64,000 bases of DNA from Trypanosoma brucei. Taxonomy: Eukaryota. The position numbers and the translations under genes were made by a program. Position 1 is the first letter of the stretch. Every line of letters starts with the position of its first letter. Location of the stretch: assembly GCA_000002445.1 (NCBI GenBank), contig CM000207.1, forward strand, positions 2,720,001 to 2,784,000. Reading direction: 5' to 3'. Below the pieces are notes generated by a model. It was not told the origin of the DNA, made no database searches, and saw nothing but the letters and a program-made list of their open reading frames with translations. This document shows, in pieces, positions 10,757 through 42,785 of this stretch.

Positions 10757-12424
10757 TATTTTTTCTATTTCTGGCTTATTGTTCGTTGTGTGTTTGGCTA
10801 TGTAATAGCTGCGACACGATGGTTCTTAGATTGGCACGGTGACGTTGTTTCTTCTGTTTTTCTGGCTTATTATCGTTCAGTTGGGAAAAGGTTATTAGAC
10901 TCTGTTTGCAGCTTGTGGAGTGCAGCCCACGCCGCCGCTACAGCTGCTGATAAGCTCGATATATTCGGCTGTCAACGCTTTTCAGAAGCAGCCTGCTGTG
11001 CCACCGAAACCGCATTCTGGTAGCTGCTTTCTTATGCGATCACTTAAATTTACCGTCTTGAATTAAAAAATTTACTAACATCAATTATTTCATGTCCAGC
11101 CTCCATCCAAAATTTTTCCATATTTACCAACACAATATTGGATATCGATTCAAAATTATATCTAAAGCACTCTCCTTGTTTCTTCTCTGCACATTGTGAT
11201 TGCATATACCTCCTTATTTTTTATAGTTGTGATTAAATGTATTAAAACTTCTTCTCGGTCAGGTTTCTGACTATTCCAACCATATTTGACACTCAGAATC
11301 TCACCGTTAAAAAATTTCTTGTACTAGTGCTGCAAACATCTGCGTTATTTTCCGCGTCAATTTTGTTTAAAGGTAGTTTGTAGATCTGTCAAATTTGCTA
11401 TCGATCGCCTCTTTGCCTCGCGTTCTCGAAGTATTGCAGCTGACAGCCTGTCGACTAAAGTTGGTACTAACATTGCTACGCACGGCATCAGTCGCCCTGA
11501 CGCAGATCCTTGGCTTTCGCTGCTTCTTCAGACTTTGTGGTTGCAAATCTTTTAACACAAAGAGTTTTTAACAAGTACAAACTAACACTAGCTCTTAGTT
11601 GTATTCGTCTCCCCTACTTACTTTCTTCTTTCTCACTTAACGATACAGAAAGCTGCAGGGTCCAGAAATACATATGGGAAGTCGATGCTATTTACTGTTT
11701 CCTTACTGGGTGATTCGAACCACTTGCACTTTTCCATGTTTTTTAGCTTCTAACATGCCAAATCTGCAGCTTAGACTTGCTTTTTACATTTTGGATGCTA
11801 ATACAGAAAATAAAGAAATGTTTGCGCCCATACAATACCTTGCCGATTTGGCTACGTCTCAAAACAACGAAGACTCAGTGTTTCCACACTATCTTCTCAT
11901 TCAAAAACGCTTTGATCACCGATATACCATGCCGGTTTTGACTCATTCTTTTATCTGCTTCTATTTTTACTAATTTAGCGCTACTTTTGTTTCTTTCTGT
12001 AAGTTCAACTGTGGCCATTGTACGCTTGCCTCTGAATACACTTTCTAGCTGTCGTTAATACAGGTACCACAAGCACTTTAAGATGAGTTATACGCTCTTT
12101 ATCTCGTCAATTACCTCCAATGTTGCTATAAGGTACAAAGGTATTATATTCCTTATTTTCCTTTCTTCCTTTCCGCTTTCTGTCACTGTTTCTACAGATT
12201 CCGTAGTTACTCTCCTTAGCTTATACACTGGAATTCGACTCTCCCTGATTATTCTTTCTACAATCTAGTTATGTATAATAATATCCATAATCATGTTTGA
12301 GCATGAACTGCCTATATTTCATCTCCTCATTCTCCTCTTCACTCTTCTACTTACTCCCATTGCATCCTTGGAATTTTTAAAAATGTTTCTATTTATCGAA
12401 TCCACTTCGTACTCTCATTATTGC

Positions 12425-12660
12425 TCTCATTATAATATTCGTATATACACACTCACAACACTCTTCTATCATTATCATCATCATTATTATTATTATTATT
12501 ACTGCTCTTATTATAATATTCGTATAGACACACACTCACAAGACTCTCCTATCATTATCATCATTATTATTATTATTATTATTACTGCTCTTATTATAAT
12601 ATTCGTATAGACACACACTCACAAGACTCTCCTATCATTATCATCATTATAGCCCTAACT
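12425..12660 (-). repeat. 70-bp repeat array (about 3 tandem copies)
   Basis: Tandem copies of cattataatattcgtataGacacacactcacaagactctcctatcattatcatcattattattattattattactgctctt. Confidence 0.85.
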
Positions 12661-12809
12661 AATTTGCATTAATAAAAAAATACAAGAAAAGTTAGAATAT
12701 CACTCATTTTCACATTTTCATCAGAAAGTGTAAAGGTATATAAAGTTCAGATAAATTTATAAATTTTATATAATCAAGAAAAGATTTTAAAAATTGTTGA
12801 ATGCTACAA

Positions 12810-13060
12810 AAATAGTAAAAGCAGCAGCCGTCAGAGCCGATTTGTTATTTACAAGTAAACTAGAATCACTTCAAGCTTTATTATTCCATTTGAAGTTATT
12901 GCCCTTTTGTACAGGCATCCGATGTAATGTGGCTAGTGCAGTTGCAGTTGCAGTTGTTTTATCCCCGTCTTTCTTTTCTCCTGTCTCGCCTCCTGTATTT
13001 TTTCTCTCCTTCTTGTTTTACCCCTTCTGCAGCTGTTGTTAGCTTTTCCATTTTTTGAAC
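12810..13060 (-). pseudogene. VSG: VSG 3'-end fragment (C-terminal domain remnant plus GPI signal)
   Basis: + strand gctacaaaaatagtaaaagcagcagccgtcagagccgatttgttatttacaagtaaactagaatcacttcaagc... is the reverse complement of a VSG C-terminus and GPI signal. Flanked by 70-bp repeats on one side and a telomere-like tract on the other. Confidence 0.55.
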
Positions 13061-13279
13061 ATAGTAGTAAGCCATTGCCTTACCGAGGTTGTTCTTGTTT
13101 CAATGCTTGCCAGCGCTAAAAAAACGGCGGTGCAGCGCCATAGGCCACACACCAGGGTCTTTAAAAAAAGTTTGAAGCCTGTCCCTACGAAACGTTCAGA
13201 GGCGAAATTAGCGAAAGCTACAAGAGTACAATTGTAACAATGTGGGAATAAAATTAGTATGAGAAAAATTTAAGCGAGG

Positions 13280-13735
13280 ATGCTGCCGTTCAAATAAGGG
13301 TTAGGGTTTCACTAAAAAGAGAGCTGCTGTGCCACAAAAAAAAAGTGAATCAAAAAATGGGTCGATATTGAGATGGAAATTAGAGCTGCAGATGTAAACG
13401 TAAACAAAAATGTCTGCTTCATCAATAAGGGTTAGGGCCACATCAAAAAAAGAACCAAAATCGTGACGTATCATTGGTAGTATAAAAAAACCAAGAAAAA
13501 AAATCATAACCCTAACCCTAACCCTAACTATCCCCCCTCCCCATTTCCCCGGCTGCACAAAAAAAACTCCAAAAAAAAAGGAAAGAGAAAAAAATTTTTA
13601 GTTGTCAGAAAAACAAAAAAAATTTACAGAATCAGAAGTTTTTTTACAACCAACAAACAAAATCTCGGCTGGATTTACGTGTTAAAATATATCAGAAATT
13701 TTAACCAAAGTTTTAGCAAGGAAGAAAAAGAGGGG
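13280..13735. repeat. internal degenerate telomere-like (TTAGGG/CCCTAA) A-rich tract
   Basis: ataagggttagggtttcac; ataagggttagggccac; aaccctaaccctaaccctaac (13508..13528), embedded in poly(A)-rich sequence. Homologous to the tracts at 34100..34990 and 57170..57720. Confidence 0.6.
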
Positions 13736-13738
13736 AAA

Positions 13739-15070
13739 TTAAAAAAGCAAAAATGCAAGCAAAAGAGAAACCTTCTTAATCACAAATGAATTGCTCCCTG
13801 TGGTGTTTGTGGTTGTTTTTCCATCTTCTTTTGTTACATCTGCTTTTTGTGCTTTCTCTGTGATTTTGCACTTTTCTTTTGTTTTATTCCATTCGCAACC
13901 CTTAGTGGTGCCGCATTCAGCTTGGCCCTTGCCTTCGCATTTGGCCGCCTCCGCTTTGGTAACTTGACAACCTTCTTTGTCGTCCTGCGCTGCTGCGAGT
14001 TGACATGCTGTTTCGTTCAGAGCGATGCGAACAAGTGTTGCTGCTGCTACTGCTTGTTCTGCTTTATTAGCTGCTAAGTTGGCCTGCTTGAATTTTTTGA
14101 TTGTTTCGTGTATGCTCTTGAGCTTGTTGGCTTTGACAGTTATCTCTTTTTCGGGGTACTTATCCACCACAGTTTTCGCTGGAATTTTGAGGTCTTGCCA
14201 TGTTGACTGATCTGTGCCTAAGAGAAGCAACAGTTTGTCCGCTTGTTCTGCTGACTTAAGTTGGTCGACGATCTCTGCCAGGTGCTTTGAGCATTCTTGG
14301 TATGTTGAATCGTCGGCTGTTGGCGCCGTTTTCGTCTGCCAGTTTGTTTGGGTCGGAGCACTGCCCGTTGATGTCGTGAACAATTCGCCGCCCCAGTTGA
14401 CTGCTTGAACTATGTTCTGGCCGTTAATGTAGCCGCCATCTGTTGAGTCGTGCATGGTGAGTCCTCAGTCTGCTTCGCTGCCGTCGGCAGCTAGTTCGGC
14501 GCCGGCGTCTTTTAGGGCTGCGTATTTGCCGGCCACGTTAGGCTCCTCCGAGCTGCTGGATTTTAGTAGCGGCGGGCTACGTCCGGTAGCATCCGCGATG
14601 CAATCAAGTTCATTTGCCTTTGCTTCGTTTGTCGTCCCCTTGATGCAGTAGTTTGATCCTGCTGTTGCTGCCTGGAAAAAGACACTAACAAATTCGTGGA
14701 TTTTGCCTCCGTAGAAAGCGCAGCGCCTTGCTGTTAGTATGGCTCTTTCCGCTCCGTTTTGTATTTTTTGGGCTGTTTCGACTACTAGCTTACTGGCTGG
14801 CAGTAACAGTGTTGACATTTCCTCGTACACCGCTCCGTCAGTTGGTAGAACTGCTGTAAGCAGAATCTGTTGTAGTTCTTGCAGCTCCATTGCTTCTTGT
14901 CCAAGCTTTTGTAGACGGCCGGCGACGTATGCCGGGACCTTTGTCATTTCAAGTGATAAATGGCAAACTTTTTGCATTGCTGCCACTTTTAAGGGCTTTT
15001 TGTGTGCTGACTCTCCTAGCTGGGCATTGGATATCGCTATTGCTGCTACCACCGCTGCTAGTCTCCACAT
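13739..15070 (-). pseudogene. VSG: VSG with a single in-frame TGA (at 14465..14467); otherwise full length, about 440 aa
   Basis: ORFs 14465..15184(-) and 13739..14455(-) are in the same frame, separated only by tga. Signal peptide MWRLAAVVAAIAISNAQ, A-type N-domain (AGSNYCIKG), C-terminal domain and GPI signal ...NSFVIKKVSLLLAFLLF. Confidence 0.8.
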
Positions 15071-15974
15071 CCTTTCAGTCGGCTTAAAATCTATGAAGCA
15101 ATATGTTCGCACGTGCGGTTCTTGCCTTTCGGAGTATCGGAAGCTGTGATGAATGTGGTTCAGAGATAGCAGCGCTTGCTTCAAGTTTTTTGGGAACGCA
15201 GCTGTTGGAGGGAATGTGTAACCACTAGGGAAAACTAGCTTGGGTTAGCGCCTTTTTTTAGTTTTTGTTAAAATTGCGGGCCCAGGCTCCCGGTGCTGAC
15301 GTTACAAACATCATAAACTCTAGAGTTGCCTATGATATTTTTGATTATCTGCATTATAGGCTGCAATATATTTTGCTACTGCGCAGTGGCAGACTGACAA
15401 TACCACGCCGCTGCTGCTGGTTTATGGTGTTCTGCCGTCTGCTGAAATTAGCTTCTACAAACACTTCACACTCTTTGAATTTTCAGTTGCTTGCCTGTGC
15501 AGATAGTAATCAATATTCGTTATCAAATTACGAATTACACTCGTTGGCTGCCATTTCTACAGCCACATCATCCCATTGCTGTGTAAAATATAAGTCACCG
15601 TTTGTCTTTCCTGTATTAGTTTACCCCGTAGTTACCTGCTGTGAATTTTTTTGGTTCATTCTGTATTTTCTATACTTCCACTTTGTCTTCTATTGCTTTT
15701 TCTGTGGATAAAGTAGCGCTTCCACATCCCTTGTACGCTAGACTTTGCTTCTCTCTCTAATATTCACTTCATCATATCATTATATACAATGATTCCCATA
15801 GTCATGATTTGTTCACAACTGCGAATATTGCATAAATCAATGTCTTTGTATTTCTTAGCTACTCTTGATAAAATTATTTGTGTTCTCTATGCCTTACTCT
15901 CTCTCTTACTTGAATTGCATCATTCAAATTATTTTAAGTGCTTTTGTTTTGTCAGTGTCTTTTGTCTTAACAAC

Positions 15975-16030
15975 CACAATTATTATTGTAATATTAGTAT
16001 ATACACAGCCACAATACTCTCCAAAAATTA
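15975..16030 (-). repeat. 70-bp repeat (single degenerate copy)
   Basis: aattattattgtaatattagtatatacacagccacaatactctcc. Confidence 0.6.
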
Positions 16031-16329
16031 TTTTAGACGTAACTAATACGCGTAAAAACAATAAAACAACTAAACCATATTAGAATATCACTTATTTTTT
16101 ACCTAACACCCTACGACTTTGCACTTATAAGAAACATTCATACCAAAATTACATATTTTTTAATGTTCAGCATTTTGCGCATTTTCATTGAAAATTTATA
16201 GTATTTATAACATTTTAGCAAATTCTATCAAATTTTAACAAATTTCATACATTTGAGCAAGAATCTTTAGAAAGCTAGAATTCTAATAAACTCACAAAAT
16301 CAGCTGCCATCAGAGCAAATTACTTTTTT

Positions 16330-17774
16330 ACAAAAGAGCCGGATTTTTTTTTTTGCACTCTGGTCCTTCCCATTTGCAATCTTTCTCAGTTTTCCTTTTA
16401 AATTTATCTGTTGTTTTTTCCTGCTGCCCTTGTTTGTTCTCCTTCCGTGCCTGCACTCGTCTGAGTTGTAACTTTACTTTCATATACTGTGCACTTTCCA
16501 TCTTTTTCCGTAGTTACATCCCATTTTCATTTACCTGTATTTTCGCGTGCAGTTTTGTTGATTTTGTGTTGTTCGCAGTTAGTGTTTAATTCAGTCACCC
16601 TTGCCACTGTTGTTCCTTTATCAAGTGCAGGTGGCTCTGGGATTTGTGTTGCCGCTGCTGCCGTCCCGGATAGGCCTGCATAGAGTGTGGCTATTTGTGT
16701 TTTGAGTCGTTTCGCTTCCTCTGTTGCTTCCTTTGAAAGCCGCAGTGCCCTCGTTGCTTTCCTTACGTTTGCCAGCCACGGTGCTGAGTTGAGTTTGCTT
16801 GTGTCCGTTGCTGACGCGGCGGTGTATGTTGTGCAAAAGCCGTTTGCGCTTCCGCTCCTACAAGCACCACTGTTGGCGGCACCGATGTATAGTTTTTTTG
16901 TGTCAAACCGCCCTGTGGCTAGGACTCGGTCAAGAGCTGCGTCGATAGAGTCGACGTTTATTTCCTGCCCGCTGTTTGCTGTGCAGTAGGCACTGATTTT
17001 TGGCCATTCTGTTGCTGTTGCGGTGCTTGGATTGGCCCAGGTTGTTAGCGCGGTTTGGGGGTTGATACATGCTTTTGGTTCGTTTGCATCGGCTGCGCAA
17101 ACGCACATTATGACGCCGGCTACTGTTATTGGTGGCTTGCCGGTGTTTGTGTCATCTTTGCAGCACACTTGTGGGTCTGCCGCGCAGCCTGACGTGAACA
17201 TGTCCGTGTGTTTTAGTCTCGTTCTGGCCTTGTCGGCTCCACCGAAGGCTGCTGTTTTTAGCAGCTTGTGAGCGGATTCCGCGTCTCTTGATCTTTCGTG
17301 CGTTTTCAGCTCCTGCAAATTTTCGGCGATTTTTGCAGCTTGTGCTGCTACCTTGGCTACTTCAGAGCCGAAATAAATCTTTTGGTGTTTTGACAACTTG
17401 GCTGCGCCGACTTCTTTGAGGACATTTGGTTCGGTGTCTTCCTCTTCTGCCTGGGCAGCTTTTAGCCAGGCGGGATAGAGAGCCTTCCATTGTTTGTTCT
17501 CTTTGTGTGTGTCGGGTATCTCGTCTCGCCAGTTTCCCTCGCCTGGTTTTGTTTTAAAGACGGCTTTCCACGTTGGTTTACTGAATGTTAGGTTTAGTTG
17601 CTGGATTGCTCCGATGTTCGGGTCTTCCGCTGTGGTTTCGCTACCGAGGGTTATTTTGGTCTCAGCTGCGCTCAAAATCGTGCGCAGACCACGGAATAGT
17701 GCTGCGTTTTCACCCGCCGCAACTGCTGCGTTTGCTCTAAGTTTTGGCACGCTCGCAAACGCAAGTGCTATCAT
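16330..17774 (-). pseudogene. VSG: VSG pseudogene (B-type N-domain; frameshift and stop in C-terminal GPI region)
   Basis: ORF 16527..17837(-) has signal peptide MIALAFASVPKLRANAAVAAG and about 415 aa of N-domain. The C-terminus TEKDCKWEGPECKKKKSGSFVKK*FALMAADFVSL is in another frame. T13 homopolymer at 16343..16357. Confidence 0.8.
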
Positions 17775-19424
17775 GGTTTTCAGTGCTCGCGGCGTGCATT
17801 GCGTGAGCTGTGTTTGTGGTCTAGTCGTGCCACACATTGCTTGCAGTCAGCTGTAGCTCTCTTATTTGTTTTTAGTCCTATTTTTTGTTTCTTAAAGTTG
17901 TATGGAAAGAAGACTAGTCAATCATATAGTTTGAGTAGACTTTTGCTGCCTCTTCCAGTCTACTCAAGTTCAAGGTTCGTTATGAGGTAGTGTTACTGCT
18001 TAACCTAATTTGGGGTCCATTGACTTGTACTTCGTGTAGATCACCATTGTTTGCTTGTTATTCTTAGTGAAAACTTGTTCTTCGGTGCTGAAACTTAGTA
18101 TTACCGTCGTGGGGCAGCCGTGGTCGGTTCAGTCATGTACTTTTTGAGTGTGCTACCCGCTGGTCAGTGGAGCTGTCCACACTGTGTACTTCTGCACTTT
18201 TCAAGCGTCTGTCTGTCACACTTCTAGAAGTTAGCTGCACTCACGTCTTAGCGGCGCATGACAGTGACGTTGCTTTGTAAAGCTGTCTTAATCTTTTGTG
18301 GTGAAATTTAGTTTTTACCTTTTTTCCTTGTCACATTTTGTGTGTTATGATGATGGCTGAGCTAGCGGGATGTTGCCTTAGATAAGTTGGAGTCCGCCTT
18401 TAGCTCCTCATTATTTTATTTGATCCATGATGTCATTTGGATTTGAGGTCGGTTATTTTGGTGAGCTTTCTTTCCCCGAGTCTCAAATTCCTCGTGATGT
18501 AGCTGTTCTGTACTATTCCAGACATTATTGGTTTCTTTTCAGTACTCCATTAGAAAAAGCTAAAAAACTACAAAATAATAATATGAAATGACTACTCTCT
18601 GTTTTTTCTCCTTTAAGATGAAATAAATTGCACTTTTTAAAATTATCTCTTATCGAGCCAACTATATTTGCCATTTAAATAAAATTCCCTTCCTTCGCAT
18701 AGCTTTACTCTCGAAATAAACGAACTTCTTGCTTTTTTCGATACCTTAGCCAATTCTCCTTGGTATAAAAACCAGTAAAAGTTACTATTTCAACACTATT
18801 TTGTATGAGAGCACCGTTTTATCGATTTTTTGTCTTTGGTTTTCAATGCATTATTACACTAGCTCCTAGTCTCTTTGAATTTGTTGCTTATTCTGACACT
18901 TCCTCCAATACTAGGTAAAATAGTAATTTGGTTGATTCGTTGTTGCCGCATTTGCTTACTTAACTTCGGTAATAGACGCAACTACAGACAAACGTTTAGT
19001 CTTTTACCTGCTCAAGCTTGTGATGTGTTACTCTGATTCGTATCAAGTGTTTTACTCCATGTTATCTTTCCATTCTCTCTCTTCTGTTGTTGCTTCTGCG
19101 TATAACATGGCGACTCCATTGAGGCTACACACTGGACCATTTTCCTACTTATTTTTCACCATCTATCTTCTTGTGTATGATTATGCGTATTGTCATGCCC
19201 GTGTTGTAAAATTGGTACGTTCCATTATCTTGTCTCTTTCTGTCTGTCTCTATAGCGTTCTATCAACAATATTTCTCATGTGCTTCGTGTCTCTCACACT
19301 TACCATCCTACTCACCCGTTGGCACTTACTTCACTCTTGGCATTTTTTGATTCTATTTATGAAGCCAATTTGGTTTTCGCAAACATTCTTTTATATTAAT
19401 AGTGTACAAGGTCGCAAAAATATA

Positions 19425-19530
19425 CAGTCATTATTATCATTATCATTGTTATTATTATCATTACTATTAATATTACTACTTCTTTTATTATAATATTTGG
19501 ATATGCACACTCACAACACTCTCACCGTTT
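19425..19530 (-). repeat. 70-bp repeat, oriented for minus-strand cassettes
   Basis: cattatcattgttattattatcattactattaatattactacttcttttattataatatttggatatgcacactcacaacactc. Confidence 0.75.
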
Positions 19531-19546
19531 TATACTAAAGTAGAAT

Positions 19547-20400
19547 ATGAAATATTATATTTATACACTTATACTGTTATATTTAGTATTTTCAAGCTCA
19601 GTACCTATTCAAGAAGAAACAACGGCAAATATGGCAGAGAAGGGCCTTAAGAAGCCAAGAATATTTGTGGTTGTAGTTCAAACTCATGCAACTCAAGGAT
19701 GGTGTAGGCTCATATTGAGTGCCAAACTAAACAATGTTGCAATTATTATAATTGCAATGGGTGGTCTGTATAGTCATGTTAAAAGGCCTAGATGGGTTAT
19801 GGAATTTTAGAAAAACAGAATGCATGTAATAAGGATATTGTAATAACTGTTTGATGGGTCTGATGTTATTGTTACTGACGGACAAAAGTGTGAAGATGCT
19901 GTGGAGTATTTTAGTCATGACAACATCAGAGTGTTATGCTCCTCAGTTGATTTTGCTCATGAACTCAGATCACAAGGAGCATGTGCAGAGATGTTATTGG
20001 TATTTCAATGTTGTAAACAGGAAAGAGGAGGATAAAAAGTTTCCTCATTTACTAAAATCACCTCCTAGTGGAAACCCCTATCTTAGTGGTGAAAATATAA
20101 TAGCAAGAGTCTGGGCATTTAAGAAATTTGAATGTGCATTTGGAGAGTTACTGAAAGAAAGTGATGAATGATTGCCAGAGAAGAGTATTTATGCTACACT
20201 GCTAATTGGTAGTGTTACTTAAAAGGAAGCTGTTGGACAGAGATTTGTTTTGAAGCGAGGAATGATTGGTCTGGATTATGAAGAGAGATTATTTTCTTTT
20301 CCGCATAGTGATAAAATTGGAAAGGCTGTATTTATTTATTTCACAGGACAGCGAATGGCATGAGAGGAGAAGGAAAAATTGATTGCGATGAATTTAAGTT
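19547..20400 (+). pseudogene. GT31-like family pseudogene, copy B (plus strand)
   Basis: ORF 19547..19810(+) MKYYIYTLILLYLVFSS (N-terminal TM-like) ...PRIFVVVVQTHATQGWCRLILSAKLNNV...MGGLYSHVKRPRWVMEF. ORF 19851..20171(+) ...MTTSECYAPQLILLMNSDHKEHVQRC...ENIIARVWAFKKFECAFGELL. Continued in a third frame: EAVGQRFVLKRGMIGLDYEERLFSFP. Confidence 0.5.
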
Positions 20401-20922
20401 AATTTAGAGAGTGAGAAAAGAGGATATTTGGTGTAAAAGATTTGGCAGAAATTTAAACTTATTTGATTGACAGTGAAAAATGGAATTTTGAATATGGTGA
20501 GGTTCGCGGAGAGGTGTCAAGTGATGGGAAGTTGTTTAACGCTAAGAAATTGTAGTTGATAACCGGTGGAAGCAAGCAAATAAGCATGTCTAGGGGCGGC
20601 TAAGTATAATAATAGCGACTCATATGGAGGAAGTACCAGAGTCAGAGCTGAATTAAGCAGTTTTGACTAATGCTTCCTTAATTCCGCAGATTATCAGTTG
20701 TGGAGTAGCAAATACATGGCCATCGGATTCCACATGGAAGAGCAGAGTGCCAAAATCGCAGTCAAGCGCAAAACCACTTCGAACATCTATAGCAATTAAA
20801 TTAAAAGGCAAAACTCAAAACAACCGACGACTGGTTACAACATCAGAAAACTGGAGTAGCTGCAGAAACACAATACAACAACCTCCTTACCTCGCTCAAC
20901 CTAAATACAAGGAGAAACAGGC

Positions 20923-22377
20923 ATGATAAGAGCGATAGCCACAATAGCTTTGCTGAGCGCAGGTGCGGCAAGAGCTACACCGCCGGCAGACGACGACAAC
21001 ATAGCAACGCTGACATTGCTTTGCCCAGCACTGCAGTTAGCGGACGGCAAAATAACATTCGAGCCGACGCGACCGACGACGGCAGCAGATATTAATGATC
21101 TGCTCGCTTTAAACATGTCCCTTGCGGATTCAACTTGGCAAGCGAAATTCCAAAAAGCAAAGTCTGACAAAAGTAGCTCAAGTGACCTGGAACGGGCCAA
21201 GGAAGAAAAACTGGGAACTCAAGCTGAAATGACAGCCTGGGCCACAGCCGCCTAAGCAATCAACTCAAAAACTAAATTAGACGCCGTTCTCAAACCGTAC
21301 GGATACGACTCTACAAACATGTCCTTGCTAGCCACAGCGGCTCAGGAAATAAAACACTACACCGCACTGGCCTTTGACGCGCAGCAGCAATTAGCAGCCG
21401 CAACCATCAACGACAAACCCGATACAGAGTTAAAGCAAGCACTAGACAAAGCGATATACGGCGGGTCAGGCGGATACAAAAACACTAGGACAAAAGATGC
21501 AGGGCTCAACAGCGCCGAACCTCGCCAAACCGCTTGCGTAGAAGCCGCCAACACACACAATCCGATCAAAACAATATCCACCATAGTGGCCTGCATTTGC
21601 GCTGTGAAAAACGACATGTCACCGACGCCGACGGCACCGTGTGGACCAAACAGCGAACAATCGATAAAGTGGGAAGCCACCGGCCTACCACTGGCCGCGG
21701 CCTGGAACAAACTGCGCACAAGGTGCCCAGTGCTAACCGAAACAACGATAACAGCAAGCAAAGTAGAGACCGCGCTGAACACAGCCAAGCAGGCATTTTA
21801 CGGCAAAGGAACCGACCTTTACGTGGGAAAATACGACACCGCCGGTTGCGACGGGTCGGCAACCGGCGCATGTATAAAATACACAAACCAAGCGACAAGC
21901 GGCATACCCAAATTCGACAAAGCGGCGTGGGTCAGCGAGTTAACTACTATCATAACTGCACTAAGAGCCCGAGAAAAAGCGACCGAACGCATAAACGCGC
22001 TCCAAAACCAAATAGCGACAGCAAAAGTATTAGTAGCAGCCGCAGCTAAACATCCGCAGAGCATGAGCGACAGACTAACCGACACTGGCGGTAAAACGCA
22101 AAAACCAGAAGACGGCGACACCATTAAAGCGGCACAAAAAGAAATAGACTGCACATCACTGGACAAAGAGACATGTAAACCCGACGTTGGGTGCAAATAT
22201 AATGAAAAAGAAAGCAAATGTGAAAACGACTCTGTAAAAACTACAACAACTCCAGCCACCACAAACACCACAGCAAGCAATTCTTTTACAATTAAGAAAG
22301 CCCCTCTTTTGCTTGCAGTTTTTCTTCTAAAATTAAAAAATTTAGAATTTAATCTCGAGTTTATTATTTTATTTTAA
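20923..22377 (+). pseudogene. VSG: VSG with a single in-frame TAA (21253..21255) and an aberrantly extended C-terminus
   Basis: ORFs 20923..21255 and 21319..22377 share a frame, and the 63 nt between them is open. Signal peptide MIRAIATIALLSAGAARA; B-type motif INDLLALNMSLADSTW; C-terminal ...NSFTIKKAPLLLAVFLLKLKNLEFNLEFIILF (read-through past the usual stop position). Confidence 0.8.
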
Positions 22378-22539
22378 AATAGTTAGATATATTTAAACCC
22401 TCTTTCATAAAAATGTTCAGATTAGTAACTTTTTGCGTTAATGTCGCATATAGCTGTAAAATAGTATAGTGATGGGGTATGAAAAATGAGTGTTATTCTA
22501 ATATTGTATATTTAATTTATTTTGTGGGTATTGCTTAGA

Positions 22540-22640
22540 GTTATAATAATAATAATAGGAAAGTGTTGTGAGTGTGTATATACTAATATTATAATAAGAG
22601 CAGTAATAATAATGATAATAATGATAATGATAATAAAAAG
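22540..22640 (+). repeat. 70-bp repeat, plus orientation
   Basis: gaaagtgttgtgagtgtgtatatactaatattataataagagcagtaataataatgataataatgataatgataat is the reverse complement of the form seen upstream of minus-strand VSGs. It lies 1.1 kb upstream of + VSG 23722. Confidence 0.8.
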
Positions 22641-23721
22641 AAAGACTAAAGTCACGGCCCAAAATGAAGGATATTAAACAATTTTGAGGATGAAATGGAA
22701 GTAGCTGACGGAGTAAGTGAGATATAGTGGAAACCAGAAATATTAATGAAAGGAACTGCAGAAACAGAGGAAGAAAAATAAATATATAATATCCACAATT
22801 TTAAGCGCAAAGATGTATACGTGCATAACCATACACAAGGAGGTTATGAAGGGTAATAAATGCGAGAGGGAAAGAGATAGGGCAGTGTAAAGGAAAAGTG
22901 GATTTTATATTTTTTAAACTGTGATAGCAGCAGTTAACAAAAAATAAATAAAATACATAGCGAAACGACAGTATTTGCGACAACACCCCAGTAAAAGAAA
23001 TGATACATCAGGGTTGGTAGAAGCGAAGGATTTCCATATGCTACTCAAAAACTGATAGAATCTACTGCATAAATGGGAAAGGATCTGCTTTTTCACACAA
23101 CGTTGAACAGAGGCGTTAACAATTAGAGTAAGTTGTTTATACTGATTCACGAAGCTGTTTTGTGGGTTGAAGATTAGTTGAAAAATAGAGGGGAAAGAGA
23201 ATGGTGTTTATAGGCGGATGGATGAATGTGATTTGCGGATTTTTAAATTAATATGGGTTAGATTTTGAAAACAGGAGTAGATCATTTGCAGCGAAAAGAG
23301 ATAACATCGCAAGGCTCCCTGGTAAGTAAAAGCGTTACCGTCAACTTAAATCCGAGCGCCTGCGCAACCGGTTCTTATGGAAGGAAAAACAAGGAATCAG
23401 GATCCATGACTCCGAACAGCGGCGAACCCGCTAGACAAGAAAATTCTGCCGATCCACTATTATTGCACCACGACTCGTCGCCAAGGTGCAGCCAACAACA
23501 TGCGAAACGATCAAACACCGCAGTAACAACCTTTAAAAAAATAAAACTTACTAACCTCCCCAGATCCCCCTCACTGCTTATCACGACAGGCAGAGCCTAC
23601 AAGGGACAAGATAAGAACAATCATAGCGAGGGAACTTGAGCAAGCGAAACCAAAATATTCAATGCTGTGGGCACGTCAACTGTTCCTGTCGACAGTGCTA
23701 TAATCGGTCTTTTTACTCAAG

Positions 23722-25100
23722 GTGGCAGCCGATTTTTCTGAACTCGCGAATGCTAACGAAGCGACGGCGCTTTGTGCGATCGTAACACTCGCCGGCCAGC
23801 GGTCTTCGTTACCCAGCAGCAACGTACAACCACCGTCAGCCCTCAACGACCTCTTAGACCTCAACATGTCGGTGGCGACAAACGAATGGCGGGAACTCTT
23901 CAGGGCAGGGCCAGGGAAAAACACAACGAGGGATTTCCCTGAGGCCGACTACAATGAAACAACAGACTGGAAAGGAAAATGGGCCGCATGGAAAAGCAAA
24001 GCAGAAGAGCTTCTGAGCACAGACAAACTTAAAGCCAAGAGGGAGCAACAAGGGCTAAAACATGCAACTGAAGAACAGATAGCCGAAATCCGACGCGACG
24101 TGCAGAAACGTGCGGCGGAAGCGGTGGCGCTTCACTTCCAAGCAGAAGCGGACGCGCCATCGACAGACCTTCTAACGGACGAGACAATACAACAGCTTCT
24201 AAACGAAGCAGTCTACGGCCAAAAAACGGAAGCAACAGGTCAAGCTTTGGCAAAAAACAATTTCGACGAGACAACAGGCGGCAGCAGGCAGGCGCTCTGC
24301 ACAGGACAAAAGGATGGCGGAAAAACAAAAACGGTCCTCGGTACGCTGGCGTGCCTCTGCATGAAAGAAAGCACCAACAACGCCCATAATCAACACAAAG
24401 TATGCCGAGCCGATCCCGCCATGTCGGCAACATGGACCCAAGGTAGTACGCCGCCGAATCAAGCGACGATGGAGGAAGTGAAAAAACTGTGTGACACTCA
24501 AACGACAAGCCAAATAACTGCGGCGAAGCTAGAATCAAAAATAGACGCCATAACAAGCCTTATAAAGTTAGACACAACAAAGGCGACCCTCGGTGTGTAT
24601 CTAGGTACAGACTGCTCAGCACAAGATACAAGAGGGATATGTGTAAGCTACAACGGCCTTTCACAAGGAGCGGGAAAAGCCAGCGAAGTGATACCTTGGC
24701 TGGAGCAGCTTACCGACCTGCTAGGAAAATTACGAAAACATAAAAAAGCCGTTGCAATCCGACAGCACACTGCAGATGCAGTAAAGTCAAAAGCCAAGAT
24801 AACGAAGGACCTAATCTACCATGCGCGACCGTGGGCAAACAAAAACGTTGCTCAGAAGAATGTCAAAAAAAAAATAGTGACGACGCAACCTTAGCAAAAA
24901 CAAAAGAATGCGCACAACACAAAAATAACAAAAAACCTTGCACAGGAGCGAAATGCTCATGGAAAGGTGGAGAAAGCGAAAACAAAGGGGAGTGCGAAGT
25001 AGATGAGAAACAAGTTAAAAAGAAAATAAAAACAGAAAACAGTGAAAATGCAGGAACAACAAACACTACAGGAAACGATTATGCTGTTATTAACAAGTAG
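23722..25100 (+). pseudogene. VSG: VSG pseudogene (no ATG or signal peptide; frameshift in poly-A run about 24862..24873)
   Basis: ORF 23722..24894(+) starts at gtg. It has LNDLLDLNMSVATNEWRELF (B-type) and IPWLEQLTDLLGKLRKHKKAVAIRQ. ORF 24831..25100(+), in another frame, carries the C-terminal domain CTGAKCSWKGGESENKGECEV...NDYAVINK. Confidence 0.8.
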
Positions 25101-25409
25101 CCTCTTTTTCTCGCAGTTTTGCTTCTAGAATAATACTTTTAAGAATTGTGTGTAAAAGAGTTTTGCTATATTTTATAAAATTCATAAAAATTTATATTTT
25201 TAGAAAAGAAATAAATTTTCTAAAATTTATTATATTTTAAAACTTTTTGACAAAAATGTGTAGATTGTTGAAAAATTAAAAAATATAAATTTTATGTCTG
25301 AATGTGTCCTATGGGTCCAAAGTAATAAGGTAATAAAATATGAAAAAATACTGCCATTATAAAAATCATTTTTTGGTTCATTTTATTGATTTTTTAATTA
25401 TTAGTACTT

Positions 25410-25500
25410 TTGGGGTTGCAATAGTAATAGTGATAATAGTATGGCTAATAATAATAATAGGGGAGTGCTGTAAGTGTGCATATACTAATTTTTTAATAAG
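25410..25500 (+). repeat. 70-bp repeat, plus orientation
   Basis: aatagtaatagtgataatagtatggctaataataataataggggagtgctgtaagtgtgcatatactaattttttaataag. Confidence 0.65.
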
Positions 25501-26289
25501 TGTGGTGGAGAAAACTGTATGTATTTCTAAAATAGAGGCACTTAAAACAGTGCTACTGCTACTAAAGAAGTAGATGGTTGAATGGGAGAGAAGAGGAATA
25601 TTAATAAAGGAAATTCAGAAGAACGAAGAAATAAAAGGATTTAAATATTCGCAATTTCTTACACTCTGCCGGACATCACCACATAAGAGAAAGCTATGGA
25701 GAGGACAGTGAGGGACACAGAGACTCTATTTTATCGGTAGTGGCAGAGGCGGTGACCGCCAAAGTCTGAAAATGTGGAAGTAAAGGACGGAATAAAAGAC
25801 GCAGCAAAGCACAGAGAAACAAGACAGGAGGCGATAAAGCGCTGTATTTCACTCAGACATGGATAGATGGAAAAGTGGAGATGATTGTTGTAATAACAAT
25901 AGTAGCAGTAGTTTATCAACTTATAATGATGTGTCTCTCATGATAAAAGTCAATTGGCGGGGAAGGTTGCGCAGAAGTCTTTAAAATCTTAGCACACATG
26001 ACCCAGTGGCGCACCTAGCTACTGCAATTCACATAACAATGTGTAGAGGGAAATATAGATGCAGGTGAAAATATAAGGTGCGCACACCGAACATACATCT
26101 TTCGACAGATACATGATAACAATATAAAGACATTGCTTACGTAAATACTGTTTCCTTAAATAAACACCTTAGTGCCACAACTGACTTCTTTCTTAACAAC
26201 CTCTATGATATTATAAGATATTTAAAGTTTTCATTAGTACGAAAACAGGAAGTTATAAACCATATGGGAGGTATCTATGCAAAAGTGAG

Positions 26290-27360
26290 TTGTTTATCTT
26301 TTATTTCTATGGTAATTATTTTATATGTGTACTATACAGTTTGTTTAGTGAGGGTGAATCCATTTCACTGGAGATTGTTGAAGATGAGTATATGAGATTT
26401 GTTTCGCAGGATGTTATGAGTATTTGGAAAACTGAAGATTATTTTGTTGTATCTGGAATATCTTCCATAGATAATGATGAAAGATTCAGAAGAAGGAATC
26501 TACAGAGGGAAACTTGTTAGAGTTACCATGAATTGGCACGTAAGTCAAATAATTTTAGTGGGAAGTTGCTTATAGTATATGCTCATTCCCCTCATACAAA
26601 TAATAATTGCGAGCTCAGAGAAATTGTTGAAGGAGATGCAGAGTTATACCAGGATATTATAATTTTACCTGTTTGTGATGTGAATCCAACAGCAAGTAAA
26701 AAAGTTGGAGGGTTGAGGAATTGGGGCTGGGAATAAGATCTCACGATGAGTAGAAAAACATATTTGTGATTCAAATTTGCAGTTTATACATTCAAGTCAG
26801 CTAATCCCTATATAATGAAAGCAGATGATGATATATTTATGAGGGTGCCAATGTATTTGCAATACCTTGAAATATTGCCACAAGAGAAATTGAATATGGG
26901 GAGAGCATGGGGTGAACTTGACGAGTATTGGAAAGCTGACGTGTTATGTCGTTGGGTATGCGAACACAATTTCGAGAGATGTTGTAAAAGAAATAGTTGG
27001 CTATTCGGGAATTTCCAAACTATTATCCAACAAAGTGAGCTTTCGAAATTTCGAAAAATATATTGAATATGCTGCTTTGAACGAAGATATTATGGTTGGT
27101 AAGGTGATAAGGCACAAAATAAAAATTGAAGGTCTATTGACTGTGAATATACAAGATTGTAGCTATGTTATGCACTCAGAGTCACACCCAGAAGCTTTTA
27201 ATTACGGCAACAATAGTGATGCATTATTTAAAAGAGAGTGATTACACCTTTCTGACAACAGTTGACGTGCTAAACAGTAAGATGCAACAACCTGTGTACC
27301 TCCAGAATGAAGTTTACCGTAAGTGTTTTTTTGACCATGCTAAACAACAACGAACAGGTT
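26290..27360 (+). pseudogene. GT31-family beta-1,3-glycosyltransferase pseudogene (canonical DDD motif), fragmented across 3 frames
   Basis: KLLIVYAHSPHTNNNCELREIVEG (motif 1). ELYQDIIILPVCDVNPTASKKVGGLRNWGW plus YIMKADDDIFMRVPMYLQYL (DxD region, compare B3GALT YVMKTDSDIFVN). CYVVGYANTISRDVVKEIVGYS (GYxYxxSxDLV). NEDIMVGKVI (EDVYVG-like). Confidence 0.6.
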
Positions 27361-27511
27361 AAACATCACAATATCATCAAATGAAGTCACCCTTACGTTG
27401 CATATTAACAGCGATAAAAAATTAAACTCTTCACATATGATGTCAATGTTTCAAAACAAACCTCTTCTCAACAAACGCTAACGATATACAGGAACCAAGG
27501 AGGCACACACT

Positions 27512-28268
27512 ATGTTTCAAACCACATTAGTAACAGCAATAACAGTAGTCCTTTTTGCGGATAAATGTGCACCGACAGCAGGACACAATATCAAAGAATT
27601 CGCGCTAATGTGTCAACTATTTACCACGTGCGAACAGGGGACTTCAACCACTGGAAACGAGGCTGAACCAACACTAGAATCTGAAACAAAAAACGTTAGT
27701 CGTCAATAACATGTCGGCAGCAGATGAAGAATTCTTCGGAAGTAACTTCGACGACGTCCAAGACCATAAAAAGGACAAGAACTACGCAAAACACAAAAAC
27801 ACTTGGGCACAAACTAAAAAAAAGGATTTAGGCACAAAAAAGATAGGAAATATACCGGAAAAACTTACACGTATGACCGCCGGTACACTTCGGTTCGGTA
27901 TACAACAACAAGCACTGGAAGCGATACCTAACCTCGAAGCAGAAAAAGCGGCGTTGCCCAAGGACAAGACAACGATAACGATAAATTATGACCTAAAGGA
28001 GGTTCTGTACGGCGAAGGAAACACAGAAGCAAAGGGTACCTGGCAGTCAACGTTCGGCAGCGGCGGCAACGCAGCATGCGGCAATGACGGTAGCGCAGAC
28101 AACAAGGTCGGCACATCTCTAGCCAACGGCCTGGCCTGCCGTTGCGGCGACAACTCGGACGACACGGCTGCCGCAGGTTGTATAAGCAACAGGAGCTCAA
28201 CCGGAAGCAAGTTCGCCAGCGAAGCCTGTGGCCCAGCACCCAAAGCGACAATAGTGGCGAAATACTAA
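27512..28268 (+). pseudogene. VSG: VSG 5' fragment (signal peptide plus part of N-domain, frameshifted)
   Basis: ORF 27512..27709 MFQTTLVTAITVVLFADKCAPTAGHNIKEFALMCQLF. ORF 27711..28268, in the next frame, has ...LKEVLYGEGNTEAKGTW...LACRCGDNSDDTAAAGC. It ends about 95 bp before the ingi 5' end. Confidence 0.7.
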
Positions 28269-28363
28269 AAAAAACAGCACTACTGGAAGCACTCCTCGTG
28301 ACTTTTAAGTCATTATTAGGCAAACATGCCGTACACACGCCATCGGCGCAGTACAACTACGGC

Positions 28364-28442
28364 CCCTGGCGATGCCGGCCACCTCAACGTGGTGCCAGGG
28401 TCCAGTACCCCGTATCATCGGGGGAAGCCAAGAGCCAGCAGA
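28364..28442 (+). promoter_or_regulatory. conserved about 77-nt 5' signature of ingi/L1Tc-type elements (reported as an internal promoter, Pr77)
   Basis: The sequence matches, as far as I recall it, the conserved first about 79 nt shared by ingi, RIME, L1Tc and SIDER elements. Confidence 0.5.
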
Positions 28443-32576: not shown

Positions 32577-33689
32577 TTTCAATGTGACCTGTGTGAGGCG
32601 AGCTTCGGTACACGCTCTTCCCGGTCACTACACAAGAAATTCAAACATAAGAGCATAGTGACGGAGGACGGTACCGTGGTGGTGGTGCAATTCCCTCGTA
32701 AGCGTGCCCGTGAAGGAAACGTTGACGTCCCGGGGAAAGGCGAGGAGCAGTGTGGTGTGCGCCAGAAAGTGCTCAGTTGCAGGGACTCTCTCATCCGACA
32801 CTGTAAGGCTTTCCACTAATGTGAGGAAGTCGAGGTTAAATGCAGCAAAAGCACAAAATTATGTGCCACTGATTCCCCGCATACAAATGCATCCATGTTG
32901 GGTGTGACCGACATGCGGAAGGCAGTGTGCTAGCAAAACTGGCCTCACCCTACATCAAAAGAAGATGCACGGTATGAAGATAGAGCGCGCTGTTACCAGC
33001 CAACGCGGCGACTGCGAAGAAACGGCGCTGCACCTGATGAACTGTCCCGATTTGAAGGAGTTACGTGTTAGGTTTGCGGTGGAAGGTGTGTGTGTGTGTG
33101 CAGGATGTATTATTCTCCAAAAGACTGGCGCAGTTTCTCATTGCGGTTGAACGAAGCCGGCCGCATGTGAAGTCCTCCCCTAATGTAACAGTTATACAAC
33201 CCACTTTCCTTTCTGCAACTTTCCCCCTTATTGCCGAGTGTGGAGCTAGCAGGAAAAGCACCGGACGCAGGAATAGTCCAGACACCCTCAGAGACAGAGG
33301 GGGTATGCAATCAACAAGCAACAGAAACAGAAAAAGGGGAAGAGAATAATAAACGAATAACAAAAATCAAAACAAAAGGATTGCTAATTGACATCTTTTG
33401 GAGAGTCTGGGGTGGGAGGTTTCTCGCCCCATCTGCTGTATTCCGTTCAACTGCGGAGCTACAACAAAAGTTATAGAAAGTGTATTAGGCTGAATAAAAA
33501 AGGGAGACTCTGCCACAGTCGCCAGACCGATAGCATCTCAGGGCTCTACGGTGATGGCTGATGGCCGCGCCAGTGGGGGGAAACTCCCACGAAGGCACGA
33601 AGAAAATTCCAAAAAATATAATATGTTAAATTTTTCAAAATAGCACATTCTTGAAAATTTTCAAAAATTTTATTATGGCATTAAACTCA

Positions 33690-34080
33690 AAAAAGCGTCA
33701 GCCATCAGAGCAATTCGCGTTTTGACGAGGATACTGGAATCACGGAATTTTGTTTTAACTCTCTCCTGTCCATCAATGAAATCAATCCATCCGGAGACAG
33801 ATTTCTTTTCTCTTTCAGTTTCCCTGGAGCATTGACACATTTCTCCGGGTTATTATACACGCCACAATTGTGTCTCCTGGTGCTACAGCTTCATCTGTTC
33901 CTTGGTTTGTCGTCCTTTTCTCTCTCTTTGGGTTTGCACCAAGCTGCTGTACAGGTTGCGTTTGTTGTGTGCTGCTTGCTGTCTGCACGCATCGCTGAAG
34001 GTTGCTGCCTATTTGGCGATATGTGCTGATGCTGAATATCGTTCTCCTGCTCCTACTTGCCTCGCCTTAAAAGCACAGGG
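33690..34080 (-). pseudogene. VSG: VSG 3'-end fragment (C-terminal domain remnant plus GPI signal)
   Basis: Reverse complement encodes ...EKCVNAPGKLKEKRNLSPDG... and, in an adjacent frame, FRDSSILVKTRIALMADAFL (GPI-signal type). A VSG 3'-UTR-like motif at 33615..33640. Confidence 0.55.
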
Positions 34081-34099
34081 ACGACTGAAGTGAAACTAC

Positions 34100-34990
34100 G
34101 ACGGGGTACCGTAAAAAAACAGCCGCTATATCACTAGAAGAAAAACATGGATCATTAAAAAAATATTGGGTCGATGTGGGGATGAAAAAGAAGGTGGAAA
34201 AAATTTAAGGAAAGATGTATGCTGGATGAAAAACGGTTAGGGTTTGCAGAAAAAAGAGACGCTTAATAATTAAACAAAATTAAAAAATATATTTAAAAAA
34301 ACTAAAAATCAAAAAAATCAAAAAAATGAAAATTTAGAAAAAATTAAAGAGGCAAATTTTTTTAAAACGCTTCTGAAGTACAAAAAATAAAAGCCGCCGC
34401 ACGGCTTGTGAGAATAAGGGTTAAGGTCCCATAACAAAATAGCCGCTGGACGGCTGAAAAAATAAAAACAAAAGCTAAACCCCAAAACGACTCAGAAAAT
34501 TAAAAAATTAGCGTGGAGGAAAATTAACCCTAACCCGAAACACCTCGGCATAAAAAGGAAGGGAGGTCCAAAAAAAACGATATCGGATGGAAAAGGAAAG
34601 TAAAAAATATCAAAGGTCAAAAAAATTTTTAAATTAAAATTCAAAAATTCACGAAATTAAAAAAATGCTGAAAAAAAATTTAAGCATAAAAAAATCAAAA
34701 TTACAATTAAAAAGTTGTTAAAATAGAAAAATTCAAAAAATCTAAAGGTCTAAAAATCTAAAAACTTTGAAAAAACCCTAAAAAATACTAACCCTAAAAT
34801 GTCAAAAAAATTCAAAAAAGGGAGAAAAAATGGAAAAAAATATAGGCGCCAGAAAAAAATCACAGAATCAGAATATTTTACAAAAACACACTATTTTCAG
34901 GTAAATTACCTGTTAAAATATATCAAATAGCAAAAATTTCTTTTAAAAGGGGAAATTTGTTTTAGAAAAACAAGGCCACAAAAGCAAAAA
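34100..34990. repeat. internal degenerate telomere-like A-rich tract
   Basis: aacggttagggtttgc; ataagggttaaggtccc; aaccctaacccgaaac; actaaccctaaaatg, inside poly(A)-rich DNA. The segments tgggtcgatgtggggatgaaaaag and cagaatcagaatattttacaaaaacac are homologous to the 13.3 to 13.7 kb and 57.2 to 57.7 kb tracts. Confidence 0.55.
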
Positions 34991-35007
34991 CACTGAGAGC
35001 GAATTGT

Positions 35008-36598
35008 TTGTTTACCAAAAAGCTTCCATTTCGGCACATTTCTTTTTCTAGATCAGGCTCATTATCTTTACCCTTCCTCCATGCGCAATTTTGCTTGTCG
35101 CCTGTTTTGCCATTTTTACAAGCGGCTTTATCACTTCCGTGTCGTGCACACCCATTTGAAGCTGCTCCTCCTGTAGCTCCATCTTTTTATGCTTTAGCTG
35201 CTTGTTGTTCTACTGCTGCCGTATTCAATTTGCAGTGTTTTCCATCTTTCGCGTCACCGCCCTCCCATTTGCATTTTCCATTGTTTTTGGAGTCAGCTGC
35301 TACCGTTATGGCTTCGCACTCTTTGGTCAGGTCGTCCGTCTCACGTGGCGCGGTTTGTTCTGCTTTTGTAGCATGGTTTTTGACCTACGTGTCCCATATT
35401 ATGTCCTTTAGCGTCTCATTTAGGTTGTCAATTTGCTGATTTATATCCTTGATGCTTTGCGCTGCAGCTATAATGTGTTCCTGCTGCGTTAGCGCTTCTT
35501 CGAGACTTACTAACCAGGGTACCGTTATTTTTTCGCCAGAAAAATGTTCGCCTTTATAGTGAACGCATTTGCCGCCGTTGGTGTCCGTTTTACCTAGGCA
35601 ACCGTCGGCAGCCGTGCCCGCTGTTATGCCTAATAAATGCATTGTGGCCTCGTTGGTATCGCTTTTTTTTTGCTAGGCTGAGTTTTGAAGTTTGCCACCG
35701 CTGCGTGCAGCGCTGCGGCTGTTAGGCTCTGTCCCTTTGGCAATTTTTGGCATTCTTTTTTGAAGACTGCCCATATCTTTTTGTCTTCCTTGGCGGCTGG
35801 CCAGTCGACGGTTGCCAGGTTGTGTCCGTCTTCTGTGGCCCCACACCCCGGGAAGCACGCTTGGCCAGCGTCGTTGTCAGCGGCTTTAAAAGCGCACAAG
35901 CAATGCAGGTCCCATCTGAGACTCCGGCCGGCCAGAGAAGTGCCTAGGCTGGCGTGGTTGCCGCATCTGTCCGCCAGGCCCGCGCCCCCTGACGCTGTCG
36001 TCTCCATTGTTTCCGTTTGGTCTTTGCCGTAAAGCGCATCTTGCTTTGCTTTTTTTACTGCTGCCGGGGTTAGCTTGTCTTTCTCCAATTTATATTTCTT
36101 GTAAAGCTTGAAAGCCTGCCGAGCCATTGATTCTAGCCGCTTTTTGGCTCTGCTGGTTAGCTTGGCTTGTCGCCACTTTTCGTATTCTGCCTTAGTTTTT
36201 TGTTCCACAAGTTTTTTTAGCCCTAGTTGCCAAAAGTCCCCGTGTTCTTTCCATTTTTCTAACTCGGCGCCGCCTTTTGGCGCTACATCTTTAACTTTGA
36301 GTTGCTCAATCGCATAACATGCCTCCAAAACGTTAGTGAAGACTGCGGAGCTACTTGTTAGATTTATTGCTGCTACCACGGCAACTGCGGCTCCTGGGTT
36401 CTGATCTCATGGTGGTACAATGGTCTTCGTCAGCGCCAAATTTACTAAGTCACAAAGAGCGCCGAACTCCTGTCTTAGTGTGCCTTTTCCTGTGTCAGCA
36501 GCGCTTGGCTGCATATAAAAAAGAACCATTAGTACAGAAACGGCTGCAAGTCGCTGTTTCAGTGTCATTTTCTGGCTGATCTGTTCCTTTAACGCCAA
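35008..36598 (-). pseudogene. VSG: VSG pseudogene (frameshifted into at least 3 frames)
   Basis: ORF 36407..36598(-) MTLKQRLAAVSVLMVLFYMQPSAADTGKGTLRQEFGALCDLVNLA. ORF 35630..36379(-) N-domain (HCLCAFKAADNDAGQAC). ORF 35385..35642(-). C-terminus and GPI signal at about 35008..35100. Confidence 0.8.
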
Positions 36599-42711: not shown

Positions 42712-42785
42712 TTTACAATATTCGTATATACACAGTCACAACACTCTCCTCTTATTATTATTACTATTATTACTATTAACCTAAA
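42712..42785 (-). repeat. 70-bp repeat
   Basis: caatattcgtatatacacagtcacaacactctcctcttattattattactattattactattaacc. Confidence 0.75.

Follow-up and report, generated by a model that had tools for sequence, protein, structure and literature searches.

Junction anatomy of a strand-switched VSG cassette block flanked by a 70-bp repeat and an ingi retrotransposon in a silent Trypanosoma brucei array

How does a run of variant surface glycoprotein (VSG) cassettes come to lie on the strand opposite to that of its neighbours? This question is raised by the window analysed here, a stretch of 64,000 nucleotides of Trypanosoma brucei (assembly GCA_000002445.1, contig CM000207.1, positions 2,720,001 to 2,784,000 of the forward strand), which is a silent subtelomeric VSG array of T. 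b. brucei TREU927. All positions given below are counted from its first letter. The block of cassettes in question starts at a 70-bp repeat and ends at a non-long-terminal-repeat (non-LTR) retrotransposon of the ingi type. On balance, we favour the view that the boundaries of this block are rearrangement junctions and that the segment next to it has been inverted, most likely via 70-bp repeats, the ingi being carried along passively. The block itself is one of the co-oriented sub-blocks that compose the silent subtelomeric VSG arrays of T. brucei, and it is a structural recombination scar in the antigen-gene archive, not a functional unit.

Between 19.53 and 33.6 kb, all the VSGs, the 70-bp repeats, the degenerate 16-mers of the 3' untranslated region (3'UTR) and the ingi are on the plus strand, while the rest of the 64 kb is on the minus strand. 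A preliminary description of this DNA had already placed all cassettes of the block on the plus strand and both sides on the minus strand, and every marker that we followed agrees. The AT skew, which is negative across the window, turns positive from ~19.5 kb, is still positive in the A-rich spacer at 34.1-34.9 kb and is negative again by ~35.0 kb. The core of the 70-bp repeat (GAGAGTGTTGTGAGTGTG) has 14 matches where 0.03 would be expected; 12 of them are on the minus strand, and the two on the plus strand, at 22559 and 25461, lie within the block. When 38 VSG proteins were compared with the window by tblastn, matches on the plus strand were confined to 20923-22374 and 23749-25200, the 17 segments found elsewhere being on the minus strand. 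In the same vein, the Pfam domain VSG_B is found on the plus strand at 20905-22374, 23704-24891 and 27482-28265. Degenerate 3'UTR 16-mers on the plus strand directly follow both plus-strand VSGs (at 22385 and 25228, each with three mismatches to TGATATATTTTAACAC), the canonical form of this VSG 3'UTR motif having copies on the minus strand only. An Rfam search of the window gave no match.

The left edge of the block is a head-to-head breakpoint, in which the upstream end of a minus-strand 70-bp repeat is fused within ~20-45 bp of the start of a plus-strand pseudogene. The single repeat unit at 19425-19530, whose core lies at 19506-19523 on the minus strand without any mismatch, stands 17 bp from the ATG at 19547; our reading of the sequence thus agrees with the abrupt abutment reported before. 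The pseudogene belongs to a group of four related copies in the window, here named family X, and the other copies help to see what the junction has removed. In a self-BLAST, 5045-5383 matches 19913-19574, and the copies at 5.4 and 55 kb share ~150 bp more upstream of that point. Besides, the other copies have a co-oriented 70-bp repeat of their own 0.7-0.9 kb upstream, whereas the copy at 19.5 kb has neither this repeat nor this upstream region. Since the homology and the repeat kept by the other copies are absent at 19.5 kb, the left junction is a genuine breakpoint, placed at the margin of a 70-bp repeat. It is identical base for base in T. b. equiperdum IVM-t1, the length of the triplet run excepted, and it is therefore older than the split of the two arrays. 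The block therefore had its plus orientation, as seen from its left flank, already in the ancestor of both genomes.

The right edge is a tail-to-tail (convergent) junction that holds a full-length ingi without target-site duplication (TSD). The length of 5.24 kb together with endonuclease, reverse transcriptase and RNase H domains (Pfam Exo_endo_phos_2, RVT_1 with 7e-44, and RNase_H in an open reading frame, or ORF, of 1282-1283 aa) fits the definition of Tbingi. Tbingi elements have a conserved 5' signature of ~79 bp, which they share with RIME, and a 3' poly(A). The 5' end of the present copy, CCCTGGCGATGCCGGCCACCTCAACGTGGTGCCAGGG, would agree with this signature. The 3' tail has only four A; the tail and the VSG 3'UTR abutting it are identical in T. 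b. equiperdum, and the 3' junction is therefore as old as the left one. As described earlier, the element is flanked by a plus-strand VSG fragment on its 5' side and by the 3' fragment of a minus-strand VSG on its 3' side, which Pfam and the reading of the sequence, respectively, corroborate. The 5' fragment belongs to a segment that we call 'a'; its VSG_B match at 27482-28265 covers profile positions 3-237 of 352, and the segment runs into the 5' end of the ingi. The VSG fragment beyond the ingi was considered as the missing part of 'a' and rejected, as it holds the C-terminal domain only and ~115 residues of the N-terminal domain would still be unaccounted for. The two flanks, GTACAACTACGG at the 5' side and TTCCAAAAAATA at the 3' side, have nothing in common: no match of at least 8 bp lies flush with the ends of the element, and the 5' flanking 12-mer occurs once in the window when both strands are considered. 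The missing TSD suspected in the preliminary description is thus real, although a duplication of 12 bp is the rule, and the hallmark of a simple insertion, for Tbingi (PMC3820030). Its loss would record an older event, for which an exchange between two ingis, an insertion with loss of the target site or a capture at a break are candidates.

An ectopic exchange between ingis deserves attention here, as it would account for both the position and the state of the element. In that scenario, the present ingi would be a hybrid of two oppositely oriented copies, whose recombination inverted the DNA between them, created the convergent junction and separated the two copies of the TSD. A full-length but TSD-less element between flanks of opposite polarity is what such an event would leave, ingi and RIME elements are known to recombine and to cause rearrangements (PMC2854126), and the 12-bp TSD is otherwise the rule (PMC3820030). 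A partner would be expected, and the preliminary description had proposed to look for it; yet no second ingi or RIME is present in either orientation in the 64-kb window. The comparison with a second genome, presented below, weighs further against this scenario, and we consider it unlikely.

The second genome is that of T. b. equiperdum IVM-t1, whose locus (CM010680.1:2176873-2205126, loci L001 and L002, 28.25 kb without any N) was entered through a VSG fragment 93% identical to the first plus-strand VSG. The sequence compared ends inside the ingi and covers the 3' 3.5 kb of the element, not its 5' 1.7 kb. Two stretches of the window, 11389-22349 and 25059-27174, are collinear with it; two others, 42965-34760 and 34537-30093, are inverted. 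The inverted unit consists of the ingi and ~9.1 kb to its right (33.6-42.76 kb), i.e. a VSG 3' fragment, a spacer, a VSG, a family-X copy, an intact VSG and a 70-bp repeat, and its orientation relative to the block is opposite in TREU927 and T. b. equiperdum. In the latter, the plus-strand domain extends through the cassettes of the unit, the ingi lies at its far end on the minus strand, and there is none at the join of block and segment. Strong homology begins at ~42757, within a 70-bp repeat, at a point that has the triplet run on one side and the GT-rich core on the other. The syntenic region of another strain, to which the preliminary description had pointed, therefore gives a divided answer: the block keeps its orientation relative to the left flank, but the ingi-containing segment next to it is inverted.

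These observations also bear on the exchange between ingis. The block and the inverted segment are joined in T. b. equiperdum without an ingi, a 70-bp repeat forms the limit of the segment, and identity to the T. b. equiperdum copy is fairly even (91-97%) over the 3' 3.5 kb of the element, with no crossover-like step. As the far limit lies in a 70-bp repeat, no second ingi is found in 64 kb and none occurs at the T. b. equiperdum join, a recombination between ingis does not explain the inversion documented here.

At the other side, homology to T. b. equiperdum stops sharply at ~27165-27175, inside a pseudogene of the glycosyltransferase family GT31. Beyond ~27175, T. b. equiperdum has the GT31 C-terminus followed by another VSG, here 'u', whereas TREU927 has segment 'a'. 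We considered whether 'a' could correspond to 'u' and rejected it, there being no similarity between them. The truncation of the GT31 pseudogene at ~27175 is the derived state and occurs in TREU927 only. Such a sharp, non-homologous loss of homology within a gene is also what a segment capture or a break-induced replication would produce: a break at ~27175 would have been joined to, or copied from, another array, and everything to its right would come from another context without any local inversion. This could account for segment 'a' (1.19 kb), which has no second copy in the window and no counterpart in the 28 kb of T. b. equiperdum sequence compared, and for the lack anywhere in the window of the reciprocal products (the GT31 3' end and VSG 'u'). 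However, the ingi and its three-cassette segment lie near the same block in both genomes, within 2 kb in T. b. equiperdum and at 1.2-6.4 kb in TREU927, which argues for an ancestral proximity and a local flip over an import. We therefore regard a capture as improbable.

Could the T. b. equiperdum locus be something other than the same array? The overall identity between the two is 88-94%, and an old paralogue was first considered from an overall value of ~88-92%. This was dropped, as the baseline is higher: in windows of 250 bp, most of the sequence is 96-100% identical, interrupted by sharply bounded patches of 52-85%, mainly in VSG N-terminal domains and family-X copies. Such a mosaic divergence suggests short-tract (segmental) gene conversion in the silent archive genes, and the locus may be read as the same array in two lineages, changed by short conversion tracts. 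Another difference is of a larger kind. A cassette of 2.7 kb (22349-25059), comprising a 70-bp repeat and the VSG at 23704, is present in TREU927 and missing from T. b. equiperdum; the crossover falls in conserved sequence coding for the glycosylphosphatidylinositol (GPI) signal, CCTCTTTTGCTTGCAGTTTT, common to the 3' ends of adjacent VSGs. Since the crossover is within this repeated sequence, the indel attests repeat-mediated recombination at this locus.

The A-rich spacer between the VSG 3'UTR and the VSG 3' fragment also differs between the two genomes, by an indel of ~350 bp at 34466-34715. The closest named relatives of the T. b. equiperdum locus proteins are VSG-599 and VSG-614 of Lister 427 and VSG 1125.1328 of EATRO1125. 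Three proteins of this locus have four GenBank accessions each in one record of 2.44 Mb, which would fit a four-fold segmental duplication or redundancy of the draft.

How far can the T. b. equiperdum order be trusted? The IVM-t1 assembly is a draft made from MiSeq reads and 7,508 PacBio reads (~2x) merged with Metassembler, with chromosomes built on the TREU927 reference (PMC6395869). There might then be no inversion between the strains at all: the T. b. equiperdum join would be a mis-assembly at a 70-bp repeat, the TREU927 order would be ancestral, and the TSD would have been lost by a deletion of the target site or by an endonuclease-free capture of the element at a double-strand break. The low long-read coverage, the four-fold annotation of the locus proteins and the position of the discordant join within a repeat family all speak for such an artefact. 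Nevertheless, a mis-join is made less likely by the nature of the join itself: no Ns run across it, and its 70-bp unit is single, ~100 bp long and degenerate, so that it is unlikely to mislead an assembly with k=68 of 300-bp reads. Besides, the 70-bp copies in the window are only 71-91% identical to each other, and a reference-guided scaffolding would favour the TREU927 orientation. The breakpoint at 27175, which lies in unique sequence, is real regardless. Taken together, these points leave little probability to the artefact.

We return to an inversion via 70-bp repeats. In one lineage, two 70-bp repeats of opposite orientation would have recombined and flipped the segment that holds the ingi, which was carried along. 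TREU927 would further have undergone a deletion of ~2-3 kb, comprising VSG 'u', a 70-bp repeat and the 3' end of GT31. One clean inversion by itself was rejected, as its reciprocal products, which would be the GT31 3' end and VSG 'u', both on the minus strand to the right of 42.76 kb, were absent from the window by blastn and tblastx. This absence implies at least two events, namely the inversion and, in TREU927 only, a breakpoint or deletion at 27175. The inversion could belong to either lineage. Of its limits, one lies in the 70-bp repeat at ~42757; the other is masked, in TREU927 by the breakpoint or deletion at 27175 and in T. b. equiperdum by the end of the compared sequence inside the ingi.

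Several points weigh against this scenario. The partner 70-bp repeat is absent in TREU927 and must be presumed deleted. As the T. b. equiperdum sequence ends before the 5' end of the ingi is reached, only one breakpoint of the inversion is visible, and either polarity would fit. A minimum of two events is required, as it is under any model. The draft state of IVM-t1, with its locus proteins annotated four times, makes a mis-join at the 70-bp repeat possible. Finally, recombination via 70-bp repeats leaves the missing TSD without explanation. With respect to the preliminary description, which had proposed an inversion or a segment capture mediated by ingi or 70-bp repeats, the rearrangement junctions hold, one of them being at a 70-bp repeat and the other at an ingi without TSD, and a real orientation difference lies alongside; the block itself has not been flipped recently, and a role of recombination between ingis is not supported.

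The features of the block and its surroundings are collected in Table 1.

Table 1. Features of the strand-switched block and of the segment to its right (window coordinates)
Feature	Position	Strand	Remarks
Single 70-bp repeat unit	19425-19530	-	Left boundary of the block; belongs to the leftward cassette, whose VSG is at 16527-17837 on -
Head-to-head junction	19531-19574		Family-X homology to other copies begins at ~19574
Family-X pseudogene	19544-20400	+	Frameshifted; predicted LH3/PLOD-like; 'GT31-like copy B' of the preliminary description
B-type VSG pseudogene	20905-22374	+	One internal stop at 21253-21255; Pfam VSG_B 1.3e-57
70-bp repeat	22526-22647	+	Core 22559-22576 on +
B-type VSG pseudogene	23704-25100	+	No ATG; frameshift into the C-terminal domain; VSG_B 7.6e-60, weak Trypan_glycop_C
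Degenerate 70-bp repeat	25410-25512	+	Core 25461-25478 on +, 3 mismatches
GT31 (Galactosyl_T) pseudogene	26209-27174	+	PF01762 23.9 bits, cut-off 23; Pfam range ~26.2-27.24 kb
Segment 'a'	27175-28362	+	B-type VSG reduced to its N-terminal 2/3 (ATG at 27512), preceded by ~310 bp of upstream sequence
Full-length ingi non-LTR retrotransposon, 5.24 kb	28363/4-33606	+	ORF remnant of 1283 aa; 4-A tail; no TSD
VSG C-terminal domain, GPI signal and 3'UTR fragment	33607-34080	-	3'UTR end abuts the ingi 3' end; kept in T. b. equiperdum
A-rich spacer (T-rich on -) with degenerate TTAGGG motifs	34081-34909	-	Downstream of the next VSG
B-type VSG pseudogene	34910-37278	-	16-mer at 34910-34925; T. b. equiperdum homologue is VSG_B
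Second family-X pseudogene copy	37455-38470	-	
Intact VSG, 480 aa	39732-41174	-	100% identical to TREU927 XP_827754 / EAN77424, 'variant surface glycoprotein (VSG, atypical)'
70-bp repeat unit	42731-42778	-	Far limit (~42757) of the segment (28.4/30.1-42.76 kb) inverted in T. b. equiperdum
Family-X pseudogene copies (n=4 in the window)	4393-5408, 19544-20400, 37455-38470, 54572-55474	-, +, -, -	

Inside the block, the cassettes are unequally equipped with 70-bp repeats. The VSG at 23704 and the GT31 cassette each have one upstream in their own orientation (22526-22647 and 25410-25512, respectively, both on the plus strand). The VSG fragment in segment 'a' has no co-oriented repeat of its own, and the VSG at 20905 has none in matching orientation upstream; as the preliminary description had recognised, the sole repeat near this first plus-strand VSG is the inverted unit on the minus strand. 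Being a pseudogene without a correctly oriented 70-bp repeat, VSG 20923 would probably contribute only by segmental (mosaic) conversion. Queried with its part from 21319 to 22377, homologues were found only among Trypanozoon VSGs.

In some cassettes, a pseudogene of family X follows the 70-bp repeat and precedes the VSG. The copy at 19.5 kb had been described as GT31-like. This assignment has to be abandoned, since neither this copy nor the best family-X copy gives a Pfam match to PF01762 (GT31), a BLASTP comparison with the GT31 pseudogene ends at E=0.44, i.e. no similarity, and the nearest fold is the glycosyltransferase domain of LH3/PLOD. A representative of the family was searched for with a single 144-aa ORF as query. 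An intact relative of 368 aa exists, with a weak match to GT_PLOD (E=0.005) and a profile match to the LH3 chain 6wfv (E=0.0019). Its AlphaFold model (pLDDT, i.e. predicted local distance difference test, of 71.6) has its best Foldseek matches in LH3 (E ~1e-5), the predicted fold being closest to the glucosyltransferase domain of human LH3 and to mimivirus R699. Family X is thus a separate pseudogene family, not GT31, and it is predicted to resemble the LH3/PLOD glycosyltransferase domain.

To the right of the ingi, the VSG at 39732-41174 is the longest intact ORF near the block. Downstream of some VSGs, the array also contains degenerate (TTAGGG)n tracts on the VSG sense strand, at 13504-13527, 57378-57470, and 34528-34539 with 34786-34797, all on the minus strand. 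They are preceded by a G-rich run (GGGGAGGGG) and lie 130-250 bp downstream of the 16-mer of three VSGs. Motifs of this type have 12 matches where 3.1 would be expected, and inverted motifs of the CCCTAA type follow the tracts at 13295 and 13426, and at 34247 and 34415. These tracts resemble remnants of VSG copies that once adjoined a telomere and became internal to the array.

A strand-switched block of this sort is a known kind of feature, already described for the TREU927 genome itself. Co-oriented VSG blocks with strand-switch regions were reportedly recognised by Berriman et al. (2005) in the TREU927 chromosome 9 arrays. In the subtelomeric arrays of chromosome 9 of the same genome, strand-switch regions lie between VSG blocks of uniform orientation (Maree et al. 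2017, PMC5359979). The window shares with them the silent VSG genes and pseudogenes, the upstream 70-bp repeats and the alternating runs of orientation, and there is no essential difference between the two; what is added here is the exact anatomy of the junctions and a comparison with one other genome.

Rearrangements associated with ingi and RIME are likewise said to have been reported for T. brucei, by Bringaud et al. (2004). The present locus resembles those of Jackson et al. 2010 (PMC2854126) in that a full-length ingi without TSD is found at a change of synteny and orientation. It differs in that a 70-bp repeat holds the visible limit, the ingi is carried within the segment, and no partner ingi was found in 64 kb. 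A third parallel is the duplicative gene conversion of VSGs (PMC4858185), with which the breakpoints share the same two blocks of homology, the 70-bp repeat and the VSG 3' end. However, we are dealing here with an inversion or a deletion inside the silent archive, not with copying into an expression site, and the recombining repeats would be inverted.

To conclude, three junctions of this locus fall in the homology blocks of VSG switching: two are in 70-bp repeats, namely the one on the left of the block and the one at the far limit of the inverted segment, and that of the 2.7-kb indel is in a VSG 3' end. The locus is a base-resolution example of a silent antigen archive being reshaped, and its value is that of an example, not of a new concept. 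Besides, we tentatively put forward that oppositely oriented 70-bp repeats may drive multi-cassette inversions in the silent archive (here of ~14 kb, with an ingi as passenger), which would be polymorphic among Trypanozoon lineages. The action of the 70-bp repeat in VSG recombination is orientation-dependent (Hovel-Miner et al. 2016, PMC4858185). As its orientation affects the copying of whole VSG cassettes, such flips could change the usable repertoire. If this holds true, the 70-bp repeat would not only direct gene conversion into expression sites but would also restructure the archive, altering which VSGs keep a usable upstream repeat.

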